From Collinsella sp. (GTDB taxonomy: Bacteria > Actinomycetota > Coriobacteriia > Coriobacteriales > Coriobacteriaceae): DNA of 60,111 bases. Shown here one piece after another: positions 36,292-58,112 of the stretch. The notes beneath the pieces are model-generated. The model did no database searches and had not been told where the DNA came from. It saw nothing but the letters and a program-made list of their open reading frames with translations. The position numbers and the translations under genes are program-made. Position 1 is the first letter of the stretch, and each line of letters begins with the position of its first letter. Location of the stretch: NCBI GenBank assembly GCA_048302525.1, contig DBFDDV010000107.1, forward strand, positions 1 through 60,111, given 5' to 3'.

Positions 36292-36367
36292 ACGGGGCGC
36301 CCCTTAGGCCTCGCAAATAAACACTTGTTAGCCTTATACCCGCAGATGGCGCTGGAGCTCGCACGGA

Positions 36368-36398
36368 ATGCGATAAAGGGACTGCTCCTTTGTCGCAT
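36368..36398. repeat. Family-A REP-like palindrome
   Basis: ATGCGATAAAGGG-ACTGC-TCCTTTGTCGCAT (two G-T pairs). Confidence 0.8.
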
Positions 36399-36467
36399 CG
36401 AAGTTGCGGTGGAATAGTTCCTGTTTGCACGCCCACTCGAGCTATTTAGGGACTATTTCACCGCAAG

Positions 36468-37334
36468 TTATTTGAGGGCGACGGGGATTTGGATACAGCA
36501 GAAGTCCTCTTGGTGAGACTCGTCGTAGCTCGTGGTGTCCAGGTAGCAAAAATCGAAAGCATTGCCGATGGGCTGGAGCGCGTGCCTGTCCATGCAGGCC
36601 ACGATGGCGCGGATACCCTCGGGCTCGTACGGCATGCCCCAGCGACTCATGCACAGGTACGTGCCCTCGGGCAGCACCTCGACGCCAATCTCCGCCAGCT
36701 CGGCAGGATCGCTCGGCAGTATTTCCTCGGCACCACGCGGCAACACGGCAAAGGAACCGGCACCGGCGATGGGGTCGTCGGAATGCAGCGCCTCGCAACG
36801 CAGCATGGCGCCCCAACCGCGCATGGGGCGTGTGCCCGTGAGCGCACGCATGCGCAGAATCGCCCGCATGAGCGTGGGGTGCAGCATCGAGCGGCCACGC
36901 TCGATATCGCTCGGGAACTCCTCAAAGACCACGTAGCGGCGCTCGAATTGCTTGAGCTCCGGTTTGCCCTCGCGCTCGCGCCAATAGACCGCCTCGTCGT
37001 AAAAACTCAGCCGCTCCTGCACGCTCGCGCGCTCGGCTTTGAGCCCGGCAATCTGCTCGTCGAGCGCCTGCACCCGCGAGCGCAGGTGATCGGTCATCTC
37101 TCCAATGTCGAACGTCGAGGTCAGGCGATCGATCTCATCGAGTTCCAGTCCCAAGTCGCGCAGCATGCAGATCAGACGCATGAGCGGGATCTGCATGGGC
37201 GAATAGAAACGGTAGCCTTTTTCGTTAACCACGGCGGGTTTAAACAGACCGATCTTGTCGTAGTAGATGAGCGTTTGGCGCGAAACGTTAAACAAGCTCG
37301 CCATCTCGCTAATCGCATACATACCCGTCTGCAT
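36468..37334 (-). CDS. MerR-family regulator with C-terminal GyrI-like effector domain (BmrR/BltR type)
   Basis: YAISEMASLFNVSRQTLIYYDKIGLFKP...GYRFYS; LPEGTYLC in C-domain; ATG 37334 with GGAGG SD. Confidence 0.9.
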   Translation of the reverse strand: MQTGMYAISEMASLFNVSRQTLIYYDKIGLFKPAVVNEKGYRFYSPMQIPLMRLICMLRDLGLELDEIDRLTSTFDIGEMTDHLRSRVQALDEQIAGLKAERASVQERLSFYDEAVYWREREGKPELKQFERRYVVFEEFPSDIERGRSMLHPTLMRAILRMRALTGTRPMRGWGAMLRCEALHSDDPIAGAGSFAVLPRGAEEILPSDPAELAEIGVEVLPEGTYLCMSRWGMPYEPEGIRAIVACMDRHALQPIGNAFDFCYLDTTSYDESHQEDFCCIQIPVALK

Positions 37335-37362
37335 AGGTCCTCCCGACACACCCTTTGACACG

Positions 37363-37393
37363 AAAAGCCCGCCGCCCACAGGGGCAGCGGGCT
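37363..37393 (-). terminator. Intrinsic terminator after ubiX
   Basis: AGCCCGCTGCCC...GGGCGGCGGGCT followed by TTT on the minus strand. Confidence 0.65.
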
Positions 37394-37425
37394 CAAACAC
37401 TACTCGTATCCTACCCTAAAGATGC

Positions 37426-38004
37426 CTATGACCAGCGCTTATAGTTGGCGCACGACACGCCGACGGCCTCGAGTGCCTTGGCGGCGATGTGATGCACCGC
37501 CTCATCGAGCGTGGCGGGGCCGTTGTAAAACGTGAGCATGGGCGGCATGAGCATGACACCCGGCACGCGCGCCAGGCGTGCCATGTTGTCGACATGGATC
37601 GCACTGAAGGGCGTCTCGCGCACCATAAGCACCAGGCGGCGCTGCTCTTTCATCTGCACATCGGCCGCACGCAGCAACAGGTTTTCGCTGTAGCCGCTCG
37701 CGATGCCGGCGAGCGTCTTCATGGAGCAGGGAGCCACGATCATGCCGTCGACCGGATAGGTGCCGCTTGCGATGGCAGCGCCAATGTTCTTGTTGTCGTA
37801 GACCACATCGGCATAGCACGCAAACTCGTCGAGCGTCATGCCGAGCTCCTGCTCGATGGTGATCTCTCCCCCGCGCGTGACGACAAGCGCCGACTCAGCG
37901 CCGGCCTGGCGCAGGCATTTGAGGCATTCAAGGCCCAGTGCCGCACCGCTGGCGCCAGACACGCCAACGACAATGCGACGGGGACGAACAGAAGACTCAG
38001 GCAT
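37426..38004 (-). CDS. ubiX: Flavin prenyltransferase (UbiX/LpdB family)
   Basis: VVGVSGASG, IASG, APCSMKTLAGIASG, RAADVQMKEQR, RETP. Confidence 0.95.
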   Translation of the reverse strand: MPESSVRPRRIVVGVSGASGAALGLECLKCLRQAGAESALVVTRGGEITIEQELGMTLDEFACYADVVYDNKNIGAAIASGTYPVDGMIVAPCSMKTLAGIASGYSENLLLRAADVQMKEQRRLVLMVRETPFSAIHVDNMARLARVPGVMLMPPMLTFYNGPATLDEAVHHIAAKALEAVGVSCANYKRWS

Positions 38005-38037
38005 GACAACTCCTTAACTACTTGGTAGGGCTACTTA

Positions 38038-39525
38038 CTAGAAGGCGAGCTCGGCGGCCCACTTGTCCTTGTCGATCTCCATGAACTGCGAGCGGATGAA
38101 GTTCTTCTTGAGGTTAAACGGAACCGTGCAGTCGAAGATGGCCTTGCAGGCGATACCGTGCTCGCGGATCGAAGGATCGAACGCGGGGTCGTTGGACGGA
38201 TCGAGCACGTGGCAGTGGCAACCGGGGATGGTGATGAGGTCCACGTCGGCCTGGAAGCGCGTGGTCATGGCCCACATCACGTCGCTCATATCGAAGATGT
38301 CGACATCCTCGTCGACAAGGATGACGTGCTTGAGCTCGGAGAACGCCGAGAAGGCGAGCATGGCGGCGTTGCGCTGACGGCCCTCGTCATTTTTGCTCGA
38401 CTTCTTGAACTGCATGATGGCAACGAACTTGCCGCCACCGCAGGGAGCGGCGTGAACGTTGAGCAGGCGGCCCGGGATAGCGGTCTCGACCATCTTGTAG
38501 ATGGAGGCCTCGGTGGGGATACCGGCCATGGACACGTGCTCGTGCGAAGGGCCGATGCAGCTCTCCATAATGGGGTTGACGCGCGTGGTGACGGCGGTGA
38601 TCTTGATCACCGGGCAGACCTTGGCGCCACCGGTGTAGCCGGGGAACTCGGGCATGGCGTAGCCGTGGCCGTTGACATCCTCGTTGATGGTCTCGTCGTG
38701 CATGAGGTAGCCCTCGAGCACGTACTCGGCATTGGCAATGCACTTCTGCGGAACGGTGACGCAGTCGGCAAGCTCGACGGCGCGGCCGCGCAGGGCGCCG
38801 GCGATCTGCAGCTCGTTGAAGCCGAGCGGCGTGGTGGGAGCCTCGAAGCCGCAGCACATGTACACGGCGGGGTCCAGGCCGATGGAGATGGAGATGGGCA
38901 TATCCTCGCCGCGCTGGCAGTACTCGTCAAAGAACGCACCCAGGTGACGGCTGCCCGGGGTGATCCACATGGCGAGCTTGTCCTTGTCGACGCAGGAGAA
39001 GCGGTGGATGGTTACGTCGGACTGGGTGCCATCGGGGCTCGTGCCATAGGCGAGGCCCATGGTGATGTAGGGGCCGCCGTCAACGGGCGTGTTGGTGGGA
39101 GCGGGAACGATCTTGCGCAGGTCAAAGCCCTCGTCGGTCGCCTTGTACACGACCTCCTGGCAGTCGACGTGCTTGCCCTCGGCGATCTGCTCGGGGGCGA
39201 TCAGGTTCTCGAAGCGCTTGCCGATCTCGAGGCCCAGGTGCTCCTCGTCCAGGTCGAGCAGGGCGGCAACGCGCTTGCGGCTGGCAAGCATACCGATGCA
39301 GACCTTGGCGTCGTCAAAGCCCTTGACGTTGTTGAAGACCATCGCCGGACCCTCTTTGGTCGGGCGCATGACGGTGCCGCCAGCACCGACGTGACGGTAG
39401 ACGCCCGAGACCTCGGCATCGGGATCGACCTGGGTGTCGGTCTCGAGCAGCTGGCCCGGCATCTCACGCAAAAAGTCGAGCGCGGAACGCAGGTCGTGGA
39501 TCTGGGAAGCATCGGTAGTGGACAT
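38038..39525 (-). CDS. prFMN-dependent UbiD-family decarboxylase, gallate/protocatechuate (LpdC/AroY) clade
   Basis: VDPDAEVSGVYRHVGAGGTVMRPTKEGPAMVFNNVKG, DVTIHR, AMPEFPGY, DEGRQR, LDPS; closely resembles LpdC/AroY as recalled. Confidence 0.88.
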   Translation of the reverse strand: MSTTDASQIHDLRSALDFLREMPGQLLETDTQVDPDAEVSGVYRHVGAGGTVMRPTKEGPAMVFNNVKGFDDAKVCIGMLASRKRVAALLDLDEEHLGLEIGKRFENLIAPEQIAEGKHVDCQEVVYKATDEGFDLRKIVPAPTNTPVDGGPYITMGLAYGTSPDGTQSDVTIHRFSCVDKDKLAMWITPGSRHLGAFFDEYCQRGEDMPISISIGLDPAVYMCCGFEAPTTPLGFNELQIAGALRGRAVELADCVTVPQKCIANAEYVLEGYLMHDETINEDVNGHGYAMPEFPGYTGGAKVCPVIKITAVTTRVNPIMESCIGPSHEHVSMAGIPTEASIYKMVETAIPGRLLNVHAAPCGGGKFVAIMQFKKSSKNDEGRQRNAAMLAFSAFSELKHVILVDEDVDIFDMSDVMWAMTTRFQADVDLITIPGCHCHVLDPSNDPAFDPSIREHGIACKAIFDCTVPFNLKKNFIRSQFMEIDKDKWAAELAF

Positions 39526-39667
39526 GGCGTACTCCTTTCGGGAGAGTGTCCGGCGACGGGGTGCCGCCGGACGGGGTAACGTAATGGGGCCGCGGCGCTC
39601 ACAAATGGAGCGCTCGACCACTCGAAGTTCAAGCGCTTGGCTGCTTACAGCCGGGGCGCTCGACCGC

Positions 39668-41125
39668 TTACATCAGGCCAAAGAGGTGGAACCAGGCGGC
39701 CTCGACCAGCACGACGACAAAGACGACCGCGGTGAGGGGGATGCCCATGCGCATAGCCTCTTTGGGGGTGTAGCCGCCGGCGTCCTTGCCTTCGCCGATA
39801 AGGATCGGCAGGTTATGGAACGGCAGGATGTAGTGGATGTTGATGGACGTGAAGACGATGAGCGCCACGGCGAGTGGGCTCACGCTGGAGCCGGCGGCAA
39901 AGCTGATAAATGCCGGCACGCACACGCCGAGCACGGCCATGACCGAGCCCATGAACATGTGGATGATCATGGAAAGCGCGGCGACGAGCAGGGCGAACAG
40001 GAAGATGTTCTCAGGCACGGAGCTGGGGAGCACGACGTCGGCGATCCAGGCGTTCATGCCGGTGGCACCGCCCACGGAGCCCACGGCCATGGCGGCCGTC
40101 AGGAACATGAGGGACTTGATGTCGACAGCGTTCCAGCTGGCGGGAGTGAGGACTTCGCCGATGATGGGCATGGCGAGAGCAACGCCAATGGCCAGGGTGA
40201 CCCAGCCGATATAGTCGCCCGAGACGGTGAGCCACAGCGCGATGGCGATGACAAGCCACACGATGGTGCGGATCTCCTTGACGGAGAGCTTGCCGAGCGC
40301 GGCCTGCTTGGCCACGATCTGCTCGCGATCGTAGACGAGCTCCTTGCTGGGCTTAAAGAGGAAAAGGCCCAGGAACAGGGTGCACAGCAGCGCAACCAGC
40401 ATAGGCACGCTCATGTACAGGAACCAGTCGACGAAGGACGGGCTCATGCCGCCGGCCTCGGCACTGTACTGCGCAACGAGCGGGTTAAGCGTGGAGTCGC
40501 CCGTCAGGAAGAACATGGAACCCGGGGCGGCAGCGGCAAACACGAGGAAGCCGAGCTTGCCCTTGTCGTCGTCACCGTAGCCGGCGGACTCGGCGATGAC
40601 CGAGACGACGGCGAGGATGAGGAAGGCGCGGGGGAACGGATGCGGGATCAGCAGCGACAGCACAAAGGTGAGCGCGAAGATCGAGATGATGAGCGACTTG
40701 GCGTCGCGCACGAACTTGAGCATGAACGCGTAGGCGATGCGCTCGCCCAGGCCCGACTCCTTGACCGCGCTGGCGATGAGGTAGGCGCCGATGACGAGCC
40801 ACATGGTGGCCTTGGTCCACGAGCTAAACGTGGAGGCGACCGTCGCCGAGATGCTCGCGGCGCCCGTGTCGTCCACGCACACCTTGAACAGGACGAGCAG
40901 TGCGCAGTAGAGCAGGCCCACAAAGCCCGGCTGTGCCACGCCGCATGCCCAGAACACCACCGTGGCGAGCGTCAGTGCCAGACAGGTCTGACCGCCGACC
41001 GTGAGCTCGACCGTCGAGCTCAGCTCCGCCAAAGGAAGAAACTTCACCAGCAAAAAGACAACGATACCCAGCACAAAGCCAATTTCGCGCTTGGTGATCT
41101 TAAACGCCTTCTTTTCCGCTTCCAT
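39668..41125 (-). CDS. SLC13/DASS family anion transporter
   Basis: Many TM segments; WLVIGAYLIASAVKESGLGERIA, LIPHPFPRA, LTGDSTLNP. Confidence 0.85.
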   Translation of the reverse strand: MEAEKKAFKITKREIGFVLGIVVFLLVKFLPLAELSSTVELTVGGQTCLALTLATVVFWACGVAQPGFVGLLYCALLVLFKVCVDDTGAASISATVASTFSSWTKATMWLVIGAYLIASAVKESGLGERIAYAFMLKFVRDAKSLIISIFALTFVLSLLIPHPFPRAFLILAVVSVIAESAGYGDDDKGKLGFLVFAAAAPGSMFFLTGDSTLNPLVAQYSAEAGGMSPSFVDWFLYMSVPMLVALLCTLFLGLFLFKPSKELVYDREQIVAKQAALGKLSVKEIRTIVWLVIAIALWLTVSGDYIGWVTLAIGVALAMPIIGEVLTPASWNAVDIKSLMFLTAAMAVGSVGGATGMNAWIADVVLPSSVPENIFLFALLVAALSMIIHMFMGSVMAVLGVCVPAFISFAAGSSVSPLAVALIVFTSINIHYILPFHNLPILIGEGKDAGGYTPKEAMRMGIPLTAVVFVVVLVEAAWFHLFGLM

Positions 41126-41209
41126 CTCCCCACCTTTCTTGTTGGGGGCGCTCCGGATTCGCAGCCACGTTGCCGCTTAAAAAGGGGCGCCCGTTATCGG
41201 ACACCCCTT

Positions 41210-41240
41210 ACGTTGCGCTGTGTTGCGGCAATACAGTCAA
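41210..41240 (-). promoter_or_regulatory. MerR-type promoter/operator for DASS-ubiD-ubiX
   Basis: TTGACT-19 nt-CAACGT with dyad CTGTATTG-CCG-CAACACAG. Confidence 0.7.
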
Positions 41241-41277
41241 GCGGATTTTTTTGGATGAGAAGCGCCCCTCTGGACAA

Positions 41278-41342
41278 AAACCGTCACAACATTCGACACT
41301 TTTCCTCATTTTCGAGATTTTCGCCGAATGTTGTGACGGTTT
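41278..41342. repeat. Perfect 18-bp inverted repeat with 29-nt spacer
   Basis: AAACCGTCACAACATTCG ... CGAATGTTGTGACGGTTT. Confidence 0.8.
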
Positions 41343-41344
41343 GG

Positions 41345-41375
41345 ATGTGACAAAGGGACTGTCCCTTTGTCACAT
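41345..41375. repeat. Family-A REP-like palindrome (perfect)
   Basis: ATGTGACAAAGGGAC-T-GTCCCTTTGTCACAT; contains the TGA stop of the LpdD-Nudix gene. Confidence 0.9.
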
Positions 41376-42317
41376 AGCGAGGGCCGTACGGATGGATGGG
41401 TCGCTGAGAGCCTCGCGGAGCCAGGGGGCCAGCTGCTCGGGATGACCCTGCAGGTAGCCGTCGAGCTCGGACGGGGCCACGCGGCGCACCTCCGAGATCT
41501 CCTCTTGGTTGATATGCAGCTCGCCCGGCTCAACATGGGCAAGGTAGACCTCGCACCACTCGCACTCGCAGCGGCCGTCGCCGTGATCCTCGCGGTACAC
41601 CACGTGTCCGAGGTGCTTGAGTTGATCGGGCTCGCGCGTAATGCCGAGTTCTTCGTTGATGCGGCGCGCCGTGGCGGCCGCGACGTCTTCCCCGGGGAGC
41701 GGATGGCCGGCGCAGCTATCGGCCAGCACCCCGCCCCACAGGCGCTTGAGCGGACTGCGGCGACAGAGCAGCAGGCGCGCGTCTTCGCCCCGGCCCTCGA
41801 CCAAAAGCGTCAGAAATGCCTGATGCAGGATGCCCTCACCAGCATGGGCCTCGATGCGGTCGACGGGGCCAAGCGCCTCGCCGGTCGCAGCATCGACCGC
41901 CACGACCTCGGCGCCCGCACCGCCCTCATCCCAGCCGGCGCGCAGAATGCGGGCTGCGGCTTCCTCGAGCGCGGCGATGAGCTCCTTGGTGGTGTCGAGC
42001 ACGCGCTGCAGGTCGTCACCGCTCGCTTGTTCAACATGAAAACCCGTGCTTGCAACTACCGGCACGCCAAAGCGCGTGGCCAGCGCCGCCGCGATATCGT
42101 GCGCCGGGATCTCGTCTCGATGGCACGGAACGGCCAGGATGCTCACCGTTGCCGTACGGCCGGGCTCGGGGCGCGGAATGGCCTGCGCCGTGGCGCCCAG
42201 GTGCGCAAACTCCGGCGAGCAGGCGTACACCGCCATGCCTCGCGGCGTCACCGTCAGCTGGGCCTCGAGCGCAAACTTGCCCTCGCCCACTGCAACCTTT
42301 GTCGTGTGCATACCCAT
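41370..42317 (-). CDS. Fusion: LpdD-like prFMN chaperone domain + type-1 IDI-like Nudix domain
   Basis: N-domain AHLGA...HRDE...GFHV pattern; C-domain EAH...LHQAF, RRSPLK, DSCAGHP, RRINEELG, YRE, ECEWC, PW; ATG 42317 with AGGAG SD. Confidence 0.8.
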   Translation of the reverse strand: MGMHTTKVAVGEGKFALEAQLTVTPRGMAVYACSPEFAHLGATAQAIPRPEPGRTATVSILAVPCHRDEIPAHDIAAALATRFGVPVVASTGFHVEQASGDDLQRVLDTTKELIAALEEAAARILRAGWDEGGAGAEVVAVDAATGEALGPVDRIEAHAGEGILHQAFLTLLVEGRGEDARLLLCRRSPLKRLWGGVLADSCAGHPLPGEDVAAATARRINEELGITREPDQLKHLGHVVYREDHGDGRCECEWCEVYLAHVEPGELHINQEEISEVRRVAPSELDGYLQGHPEQLAPWLREALSDPSIRTALAM

Positions 42318-42351: not shown

Positions 42352-42382
42352 ATCTTCGCCTGTATTGCGACTATACAGGCAA
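42352..42382 (-). promoter_or_regulatory. MerR-type promoter/operator for the LpdD-Nudix gene
   Basis: TTGCCT-19 nt-GAAGAT with dyad GCCTGTAT-N7-ATACAGGC. Confidence 0.7.
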
Positions 42383-42389
42383 GCCCTCC

Positions 42390-42420
42390 ATGTGACAAAG
42401 GGACTGCCCCTTTGTCACAT
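42390..42420. repeat. Family-A REP-like palindrome
   Basis: ATGTGACAAAGGG-ACTGC-CCCTTTGTCACAT. Confidence 0.9.
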
Positions 42421-47326: not shown

Positions 47327-47359
47327 AATGTGTCAAAGGGGCTGTCCCTTTGACACATT
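47327..47359. repeat. Family-A REP-like palindrome
   Basis: AATGTGTCAAAGGG-GCTGT-CCCTTTGACACATT (compensatory A:T to T:A). Confidence 0.9.
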
Positions 47360-58081: not shown

Positions 58082-58112
58082 ATGCGACAAAGGGACAGCC
58101 CCTTTGTCGCAT
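58082..58112. repeat. Family-A REP-like palindrome
   Basis: ATGCGACAAAGGG-ACAGC-CCCTTTGTCGCAT (compensatory T:A to C:G). Confidence 0.9.

Follow-up and report, generated by a model that had tools for sequence, protein, structure and literature searches.

Activating UbiD-family decarboxylases, which depend on prenylated flavin mononucleotide (prFMN), in a foreign host is frequently difficult, and it is only partly understood where the flavin prenyltransferase UbiX obtains its prenyl donor. Here we analyzed a gene on a 60,111-nucleotide stretch of DNA from Collinsella sp., a member of a common human gut genus (assembly GCA_048302525.1, contig DBFDDV010000107.1, positions 1 to 60,111; the whole stretch is called the window hereafter). 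The gene joins an LpdD-family domain to a domain resembling type-1 isopentenyl-diphosphate isomerase (IDI), in which the catalytic Cys has been replaced.

The closest described counterpart of the N-terminal half is LpdD of L. plantarum (lp_0272; 8PO5, 8PZH, 8PZO, 8P4W). PMC10865409 describes LpdD as a Pba3/4-like dimer that has a metal site formed by H35, H61 and D63 and that binds reduced prFMN (prFMNH2) specifically. The window domain shares with it the family PF21758, the fold (TM score ~0.8), the metal triad and the company of UbiX and an AroY/LpdC-type UbiD, but it forms the N-terminal half of a 315-aa protein with an IDI-like C-terminal half, and the pairwise identity is low. For the C-terminal half the reference is E. 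coli Idi (1NFS, 1HX3), with which the window domain shares the fold (TMt 0.84) and the residues H25, H32, R51, K55, H69, R83, E87, Y104, E114, E116, C118 and W161, whereas Cys67 is replaced by Ala, Val66 by Cys, Lys21 by Arg and Asn64 by Asp. The window domain also differs in its fusion to LpdD and in failing to reach the cut-off of TIGR02150. The model NF041653 ('Nud_hyd_Meth') presumably describes a methanogen Nudix hydrolase specific for isopentenyl diphosphate (IPP) and dimethylallyl diphosphate (DMAPP) that was proposed to act in prFMN synthesis; the idea of a prenyl-diphosphate-specific Nudix enzyme serving UbiX is shared, but the window domain is not a member (16.8 bits against a cut-off of 300). 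A possible analogy as a source of dimethylallyl monophosphate (DMAP) is offered by E. coli NudB, NudF, NudI and NudJ, which make DMAP from DMAPP for prFMN according to PMC12359138, which cites Wang et al. (2018). These enzymes have the Nudix superfamily in common with the window domain, but are neither IDI-like, nor LpdD-fused, nor clustered with ubiX.

The fused gene starts with an ATG at 42317, preceded 5 nt upstream by AGGAG, and stops with a TGA at 41370–41372. A longer frame starting with TTG is also present; the full-length homologues of the fusion cluster around 315 aa. The closest named proteins are from Collinsella species, a fusion in Coriobacterium glomerans is 54% identical, and database labels for the homologues read 'isopentenyl-diphosphate Delta-isomerase' or 'NUDIX hydrolase'. 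The full-length AlphaFold2 model has a predicted local distance difference test score (pLDDT) of 95.4 and a predicted TM score (pTM) of 0.86. The gene and its parts are:

41370 to 42317, minus strand: fused gene (315 aa and the stop codon), in which an LpdD-family domain precedes a type-1-IDI-like domain of Nudix fold that lacks the Cys
41934 to 42317, minus strand: LpdD-family domain, about residues 1–128 (PF21758; metal triad H39/H66/D68, G92-x-H94)
41373 to 41912, minus strand: type-1-IDI-like Nudix-fold domain, about residues 136–315 (PF00293, NF002995, Foldseek)
41700 to 41720, minus strand: motif D200-S-C202-A203-G-H205-P, aligned to E. coli N64-S-V66-C67-G-H69-P

The N-terminal domain is a true LpdD-family domain with the triad that LpdD uses in binding prFMNH2. 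It matches Pfam PF21758 (PAC_bac) at 65.7 bits against a cut-off of 27 over residues 12–119. A phmmer search of the PDB with the single domain sequence gave no match, but profile and fold searches did match LpdD. The profile, built from 72 family members (window domain included), matched 8po5 with an E-value of 1.1e-16, as well as 8pzh and 8p4w at about 1e-16, and its alignment superposed the HiG, HkD and GiH motifs, with H39, H66 and D68 aligned to His35, His61 and Asp63 of the LpdD metal triad. The AlphaFold2 model of the domain (pLDDT 96.1) had 8po5_A as its best PDB match (TM 0.79/0.82, root-mean-square deviation 1.9 Å), followed by the proteasome chaperones Pba3/4 and PAC3, with Pba3/4 (2z5b) at rank 7. 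These values come from a search with the N-domain alone; among the matches listed for the full-length model there were only IDI/Nudix chains and no LpdD.

The C-terminal domain descends from type-1 IPP:DMAPP isomerase. It matches PF00293 (NUDIX) at 59.7 bits (cut-off 21.1), and the top Foldseek match of this half is E. coli IDI (1nfs, TMt 0.84). The scores for the two IDI equivalog hidden Markov models were 128.2 bits for NF002995 (cut-off 127) and 74.3 bits for TIGR02150 (cut-off 105.8). When residues are counted along the RefSeq sequence of E. coli K-12 idi, LADSCAGHP of the window stands opposite WTNSVCGHP without any indel between K55 and H69. Ala203 is thereby placed at the Cys67 position and Cys202 at the Val66 position, and HMMER alignments with solved IDI chains from the PDB show an identical register. 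In E. coli numbering, the domain retains H25, H32, H69, E114 and E116 as Zn/Mn ligands and R51, K55, R83 and E87 as diphosphate/Mg residues, together with Y104 and W161. The Nudix-box region, G204-x5-E210-x7-R218-R-I-N-E-E-L-G-I, departs from the signature GX5EX7REUXEEXGU only at the Glu after the Arg. The 'EE' pair was considered as a hydrolase signature and rejected, as it is common to many canonical IDIs in the 104-sequence alignment described below.

The Cys-less motif is neither chance nor a sequencing oddity. A regular-expression search over 304 proteins returned 117 with CAGH, 3 with CSGH, 1 with CVGH and 2 with CCSH, while 8 more were false positives (LpdD-only proteins). An alignment of 104 IDI-family sequences was then read in E. 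coli numbering; 88 of them were canonical and 16 Cys-less. The Cys motif of the canonical set is partly selected by design, since 80 of these sequences came from a scan with WSNACCSH among its patterns; six Coriobacteriia IDIs (L045–L050) and E. coli are independent of that selection. Position 21 is R in 16/16 Cys-less and K in 88/88 canonical sequences, and position 64 is D in 15/16 and N in 88/88, respectively. In the Cys-less sequences, Cys is invariant at positions 66 and 118 (16/16 each), and position 67 is A in 14/16 and S in 2/16. H32, R51, K55, H69, Y104, E114, E116 and W161 are conserved in all 16 of them, and H25, R83 and E87 in 15 each. The window domain shows three changes that are specific to the clade, K21R, N64D and C67A, and its residue 66 is Cys.

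A tree was calculated for 44 of the 104 sequences, comprising 15 of the 16 Cys-less domains (L036, a near copy of L037, was omitted), 10 others of interest and 19 canonical sequences from the scan. The Cys-less set fell into one cluster with support of 95/95 and the canonical set stood apart with 99/93, on a tree whose root is arbitrary and in which E. coli sits on a long branch; canonical IDIs linked to LpdD appeared in at least two separate places. The Cys-less domain is a well-supported clade found in UbiD/UbiX clusters across Coriobacteriia, fused to or beside LpdD.

The original prediction, made from the sequence alone, had named the reading frame, which lies at exactly the coordinates given, and a set of motifs, all of which are present: AH39LG, CH66RD68 and GFH94V in the N-terminal half, and H158, H165, R186-R187-x3-K191, Y241, E251-C-E253 and P298-W299 in the C-terminal half. 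Its assignment of the N-domain to LpdD is borne out by PF21758, the profile match to the L. plantarum protein and the fold match, and its placing of Ala at the isomerase Cys67 position holds in the alignments to E. coli idi and to PDB IDI chains. The HMMER alignment, Foldseek and the residue table agree with its description of the C-domain as type-1-IDI-like without the isomerase Cys.

Next to the fused gene, on the same strand, lie the genes of a decarboxylase system:

39668 to 41125, minus strand: DASS-family anion:sodium symporter, separated from the fused gene by a 244-bp gap
38038 to 39528, minus strand: UbiD-family decarboxylase of AroY/LpdC (protocatechuate/gallate) type (Pfam UbiD_N/UbiD/UbiD_C)
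37426 to 38004, minus strand: UbiX flavin prenyltransferase of VdcB/EcdB type (NF004685, 214.5 bits against a cut-off of 188; best PDB match 1sbz)
36468 to 37400, minus strand: MerR-family regulator (domain matches)

The best PDB chains for the UbiD were the protocatechuate decarboxylases AroY 5o3m (E = 8.8e-167), 5o3n and 5ny5, with E-values from 1e-164 to 1e-167. Given this likeness to AroY, the window system corresponds to the gallate/protocatechuate decarboxylase LpdB/C/D. The host genome (2.0 Mb, 90.8% complete) holds a single copy each of the LpdD domain (PF21758), UbiD and UbiX, and the fusion is its sole IDI-family match. At this completeness, no type-2 IDI above the family cut-off and no HMG-CoA reductase were found, and IspH was present. 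The presence of IspH together with the failure to find HMG-CoA reductase indicates that precursors come from the methylerythritol phosphate (MEP) route, in which case an isomerase is dispensable in the host.

The donor preference of UbiX bears on which prenyl compound would be supplied. According to PMC6541611, PaUbiX (F181) is DMAP-specific, AnUbiX (Q203) is DMAPP-specific and O157 UbiX (H164) uses both, and the donor-linked residue is described as not the sole determinant. The window UbiX is nearest to O157 UbiX (1sbz), and its His-His pair aligns with H163-H164 of 1sbz. His occupied the beta-phosphate position in 16 of 17 cluster UbiX proteins whichever IDI type accompanied them, the remaining one, from Chloroflexia, having Gln. 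We also considered whether the Cys-less IDI is paired with a distinct type of UbiX, and rejected this, as the donor residue did not differ from that of the partners of canonical IDIs (16/17 His).

We searched the fusion against 401 genomes of the class. Full-length fusions occurred in the genus of the window, in its sister genus (2/2 genomes, 60–62% identity) and in G383 (35%). The class shows a Rosetta-stone pattern: the domain is fused in the window, G023, G038 and G383, and the halves were separate genes, adjacent or up to ~3 kb apart, in 11 genomes of other families (G001, G004, G006, G024, G027, G045, G127, G171, G173, G279 and G301). Comparison of twenty loci revealed a recurrent cluster made up of a UbiD paralog, DASS, UbiX, LpdD, an AroY-like UbiD and the IDI-like gene. 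A survey of neighbourhoods had been suggested with the original prediction, and it shows UbiX, UbiD and/or LpdD in the same stretch at 12 of 13 Cys-less loci (the window and 12 others), the exception being L039. Four Coriobacteriia clusters contain a RibBA gene (DHBP synthase and GTP cyclohydrolase II), flanked by the AroY-like UbiD on one side and the IDI-like gene on the other. Downstream of the IDI-like gene, the two clusters checked had an opposite-strand gene or unrelated housekeeping genes.

Canonical, Cys-bearing IDIs are linked in the same manner. In a Peptococcaceae metagenome-assembled genome (MAG), the fusion P0188 (L056) shares with the window the LpdD-then-IDI order and the neighbourhood, arranged as UbiD, DASS, UbiX, fusion. 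Unlike the window domain, it has retained the catalytic Cys (NACCSHP), scores above the cut-offs of both NCBIfam IDI models and falls within the other IDI lineage of the tree. A canonical IDI adjoins LpdD in G335, G296 and a Scatomonas MAG, and adjoins UbiX in a Chloroflexia MAG. As a control, ubiX, ubiD or lpdD lay near the IDI in only 3 of the 80 loci found with P0188, namely its own locus, the Scatomonas MAG (LpdD then IDI) and the Chloroflexia MAG (UbiX then IDI). An exhaustive search with the N-domain gave 258 cluster representatives, mostly of 115–140 aa. Ten longer ones were checked, and these included three LpdD+Nudix fusions (P0136, P0188, P0206) and two fusions of a CTP-dependent riboflavin kinase (PF01982) with LpdD (P0184, P0218). 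A metagenome scan for the latter type yielded only its own contig and one weak locus, the contig being, at 3.4 kb, too short to show ubiX or ubiD.

Within the genus, the fusion was matched in 73 of 144 genomes (G000 left out; G064 has LpdD only and G331 a broken copy), while the other 71 gave no match to the fused gene. All 65 genomes with an AroY-like UbiD lie among the 73. The original prediction expected the gene beside ubiD and ubiX in most carriers, and indeed the fusion and the AroY-like UbiD share one contig, 1.65–3.35 kb apart, in 64 of these 65 genomes. In the 65th they are on different contigs, with the fusion cut off at a contig end. Linked copies had a median ratio of nonsynonymous to synonymous substitution (dN/dS) of 0.111 (329 pairs, 30 copies). 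Copies in genomes without the decarboxylase genes are called orphans hereafter; five intact ones (L139–L143) have syntenic flanks and lack exactly the 4.9-kb merR-ubiX-ubiD-DASS block (window 36367–41276). One junction sequence is common to all five, the block being present or absent as a unit, and the difference may just as well reflect a gain of the block by the other lineages. The UbiD of the block shares 81% identity with the UbiD of G296, from another family, but only 62% with the sister-genus UbiD. Orphan motifs are unchanged except for S to G at residue 201 in L141, and in the nucleotide tree two orphans are nested among linked copies. L140 looks recombinant, being 98% like L139 beyond the junction and 86–87% on the gene side, with a breakpoint near the junction.

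Two putative transcription signals flank the fused gene:

42370 to 42398, minus strand: sigma-70-like promoter match, TTGTCA-17 nt-TATAGT, 10/12 matches
41273 to 41375, minus strand: two long hairpins and then a U-run, immediately behind the fused-gene stop, terminator-like, -67.8 kcal/mol

The promoter match was the sole site in the 6.5 kb scanned and is weak alone, as shuffled sequences averaged 1.2 sites. The terminator-like fold had a z-score of -9.6, and 0 of 200 shuffles were as good. Because of these two signals, the fused gene probably forms a separate transcription unit that runs in the same direction as the decarboxylase genes.

With middling confidence, we favour the reading that the fusion is a two-domain accessory protein of the AroY/LpdC-type, prFMN-dependent decarboxylase system, with the C-domain as its prenyl-donor module. 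The C-domain would still bind IPP or DMAPP and would serve the prenyl branch of prFMN synthesis. The LpdD domain would take up the product of UbiX, which would have LpdD acting at the UbiX step, and RibBA and the riboflavin kinase would serve the flavin branch likewise. It is this recurrent recruitment of precursor-supply enzymes to such clusters that leads to the prenyl-donor reading. A more specific version, which we hold only tentatively, is that the Cys-less clade is a neofunctionalised IDI and the first dedicated bacterial dimethylallyl-donor enzyme for flavin prenylation (by DMAPP to DMAP conversion or other chemistry on the bound prenyl diphosphate), physically coupled to the chaperone of prFMNH2. 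If so, LpdD would act at the UbiX step as well as in the loading of UbiD. In a far-fetched sub-variant of this version, a reduced flavin held by LpdD would replace the missing Cys as the acid/base, by analogy with FMNH2 in type-2 IDI.

Several observations weigh against the prenyl-donor reading. No UbiX- or UbiD-family match was found in any of the eight same-genus fusion carriers without an AroY-like UbiD, and seven of these eight orphan copies are intact; hence the fusion is not strictly tied to UbiX/UbiD. The orphans are under purifying selection: orphan pairs had dN/dS values of 0.108–0.164, with one pair at 0.357 at low dS, in pairwise estimates that include time before any block loss. 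The nucleotide tree has one all-orphan clade (L139, L142 and L143; dS up to 0.27), which argues that the gene has been retained without UbiX and UbiD. A Cys-less IDI-like gene is also retained on its own in G053, from another family; this genome lacks UbiD, and its UbiX-family match, at 27.9 bits, stays below the cut-off. In G064, of the same genus, and in the neighbouring family there are clusters of LpdD, UbiD and UbiX that contain no IDI, and the IDI-like part is therefore dispensable for such clusters. The UbiX donor residue gives no hint that the Cys-less type is paired with a DMAP-specific UbiX. Finally, given the promoter-like and terminator-like signals of the fused gene, 'operon' probably overstates its link to the decarboxylase genes.

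As to the chemistry, hydrolysis of DMAPP or IPP is narrowly the likeliest single activity, with isomerization by a replacement base close behind. In the first case, which is the specific inference of the original prediction and is possible but doubtful, the IDI scaffold would have gone back to hydrolysis of the Nudix type. The domain would be a dedicated DMAPP-to-DMAP (or IPP-to-isopentenyl monophosphate) diphosphohydrolase feeding UbiX, and D200 (N64D), beside the Mg-diphosphate site, would provide a new base or bind metal. The isomerase Cys is gone while the diphosphate and metal residues are kept, 15 of 16 sequences have acquired a carboxylate at position 64, the fold is that of Nudix proteins and Pfam NUDIX is matched, and a HAD_2 hydrolase lies directly upstream of close stand-alone LpdD in 3 of 6 loci. 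The formation of DMAP from DMAPP by E. coli NudB, F, I and J (PMC12359138, citing Wang 2018) is a further point in its favour. Set against this is the partner UbiX, whose His stands at the position of H164 in O157 UbiX and is tied to DMAPP use, so that DMAP may be unneeded. Y104, W161 and the five Zn-site ligands are conserved and not obviously needed for hydrolysis. Orphan copies are maintained in genomes where DMAP would lack a known consumer, other clusters have a canonical IDI with its Cys in the equivalent place, either fused or adjacent, the fused gene looks like its own transcription unit, and the match to the methanogen Nudix model NF041653 is far below its cut-off.

Somewhat less probable, and in our view unlikely, is that the protein is an IPP:DMAPP isomerase with a replacement base, either Cys202 after local re-registration or Asp200, and thus the only IDI of the organism, located with prFMN genes by coincidence. 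The residues for protonation and carbocation chemistry (E116, Y104, W161) are present in 16/16 sequences and Cys at position 66 is invariant; the gene is the only one of the IDI family in the host genome. Its retention without UbiX and UbiD would fit a general isoprenoid role, and canonical IDIs fill the same cluster position elsewhere. On the other side, Ala or Ser stands at the catalytic Cys position with no indel to shift the register, the TIGR02150 score is below the cut-off, and the gene is unmatched in 71 of 144 same-genus genomes and so is not a core function. The Cys-Cys pair is also present in yeast IDI, where mutation of the second Cys reportedly inactivates the enzyme despite the first, which counts against this alternative. 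We do not think that the fusion is a conventional isomerase: the type-1 mechanism, as set out in the review PMC3509576, requires the conserved Cys for removal of the C2 proton, and ordinary isomerase activity is accordingly doubted.

An improbable alternative is a non-catalytic module that binds prenyl diphosphate and hands DMAPP to UbiX, while the LpdD domain collects prFMNH2. It would agree with the kept binding residues, the lost Cys and an AlphaFold2 model that is predicted confidently as a single rigid unit (pTM 0.86), but the full metal site with E116 and Y104 is under strong purifying selection, more than binding needs, and the domain is a separate protein in many genomes. That the function is unrelated to prFMN and the ubiD/ubiX linkage a historical accident of one locus, as the orphan copies, the gene's own transcription signals and the single junction of the 4.9-kb merR-ubiX-ubiD-DASS block as an insertion/deletion unit might suggest, is very unlikely, since the linkage recurs across families and phyla, in two IDI lineages and in fused and split form, and the N-domain is of the LpdD family with its ligand site intact.

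No description of an LpdD-IDI or LpdD-Nudix fusion or of a Cys-less IDI clade was found in the literature searched, most subscription journals and supplements lying outside its scope, in keeping with the original view of the architecture as undescribed. Term searches of PMC10865409 (LpdD) and PMC13040415 (PhdC) gave no mention of Nudix, isomerase or fused forms. The fusions and neighbourhoods tie the prFMNH2 chaperone LpdD to an IDI-family protein, riboflavin kinase and RibBA. This suggests that some bacteria assemble a complete cofactor-supply module around UbiX, which might offer ready parts for better production of holo-UbiD. The Cys-less clade is a natural experiment with a type-1 IDI scaffold that lacks the catalytic thiol. 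Since roughly half of the Collinsella genomes covered gave no match to the gene, it may be relevant to how strains differ in their metabolism of polyphenols.

Further features were seen at individual loci. The RibBA clusters are L038 (9945–11339), L040, L041 and L043, with no other rib genes alongside. A second UbiD paralog, ~27% identical to the AroY-like one, heads a UbiD2-DASS-UbiX-LpdD block in L035, L037, L038, L040, L042, L043, L051, L052 and L056. This block also occurs in the Peptococcaceae MAG. Its DASS symporter would fit a substrate that is an anion and may be a dicarboxylate. In G064 (L145), from the genus of the window, the order is LpdD, UbiD, DUF554, UbiX, MerR, with neither an IDI-like domain nor a DASS gene. 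In the Chloroflexia MAG (L092, 9108–10540), the canonical IDI comes directly after a UbiX that shares the Gln of the DMAPP-specific fungal enzyme at the beta-phosphate position. The HAD_2-family hydrolases directly upstream of stand-alone LpdD were found at L053 (8660–9358), L054 (9446–10159) and L146 (5033–5734), three of six loci; these LpdD proteins are 65–72% identical to the window N-domain and lie far from ubiD and ubiX. On the 3.4-kb metagenome contig L136 (233–1090, 1173–1715), the riboflavin kinase-LpdD fusion is followed by the S component of an energy-coupling factor (ECF) transporter (PF12822). P0124 (335 aa) joins a phosphomethylpyrimidine-kinase-family domain (PF08543) to LpdD-domain residues 33–130 at 95% identity, and may be a deletion, chimera or assembly artefact in a close relative.

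A perfect palindrome was also found at both ends of the fused gene:

42392 to 42418, no strand assigned: 27-bp palindrome GTGACAAAGGGAC-N3-CCCTTTGTCAC, overlapping the promoter -35 box
41347 to 41373, no strand assigned: second copy of the 27-bp palindrome, beginning at the fused-gene stop codon

These two copies bracket the fused gene exactly, at the -35 box and the stop codon. Further copies occur at 47330–47356 and 58084–58110, and a degenerate copy lies near 36369–36397. Four copies with three or fewer mismatches were counted in the window and none in 100 shuffles. The palindrome may be an element of the repetitive extragenic palindromic (REP) kind or an operator.

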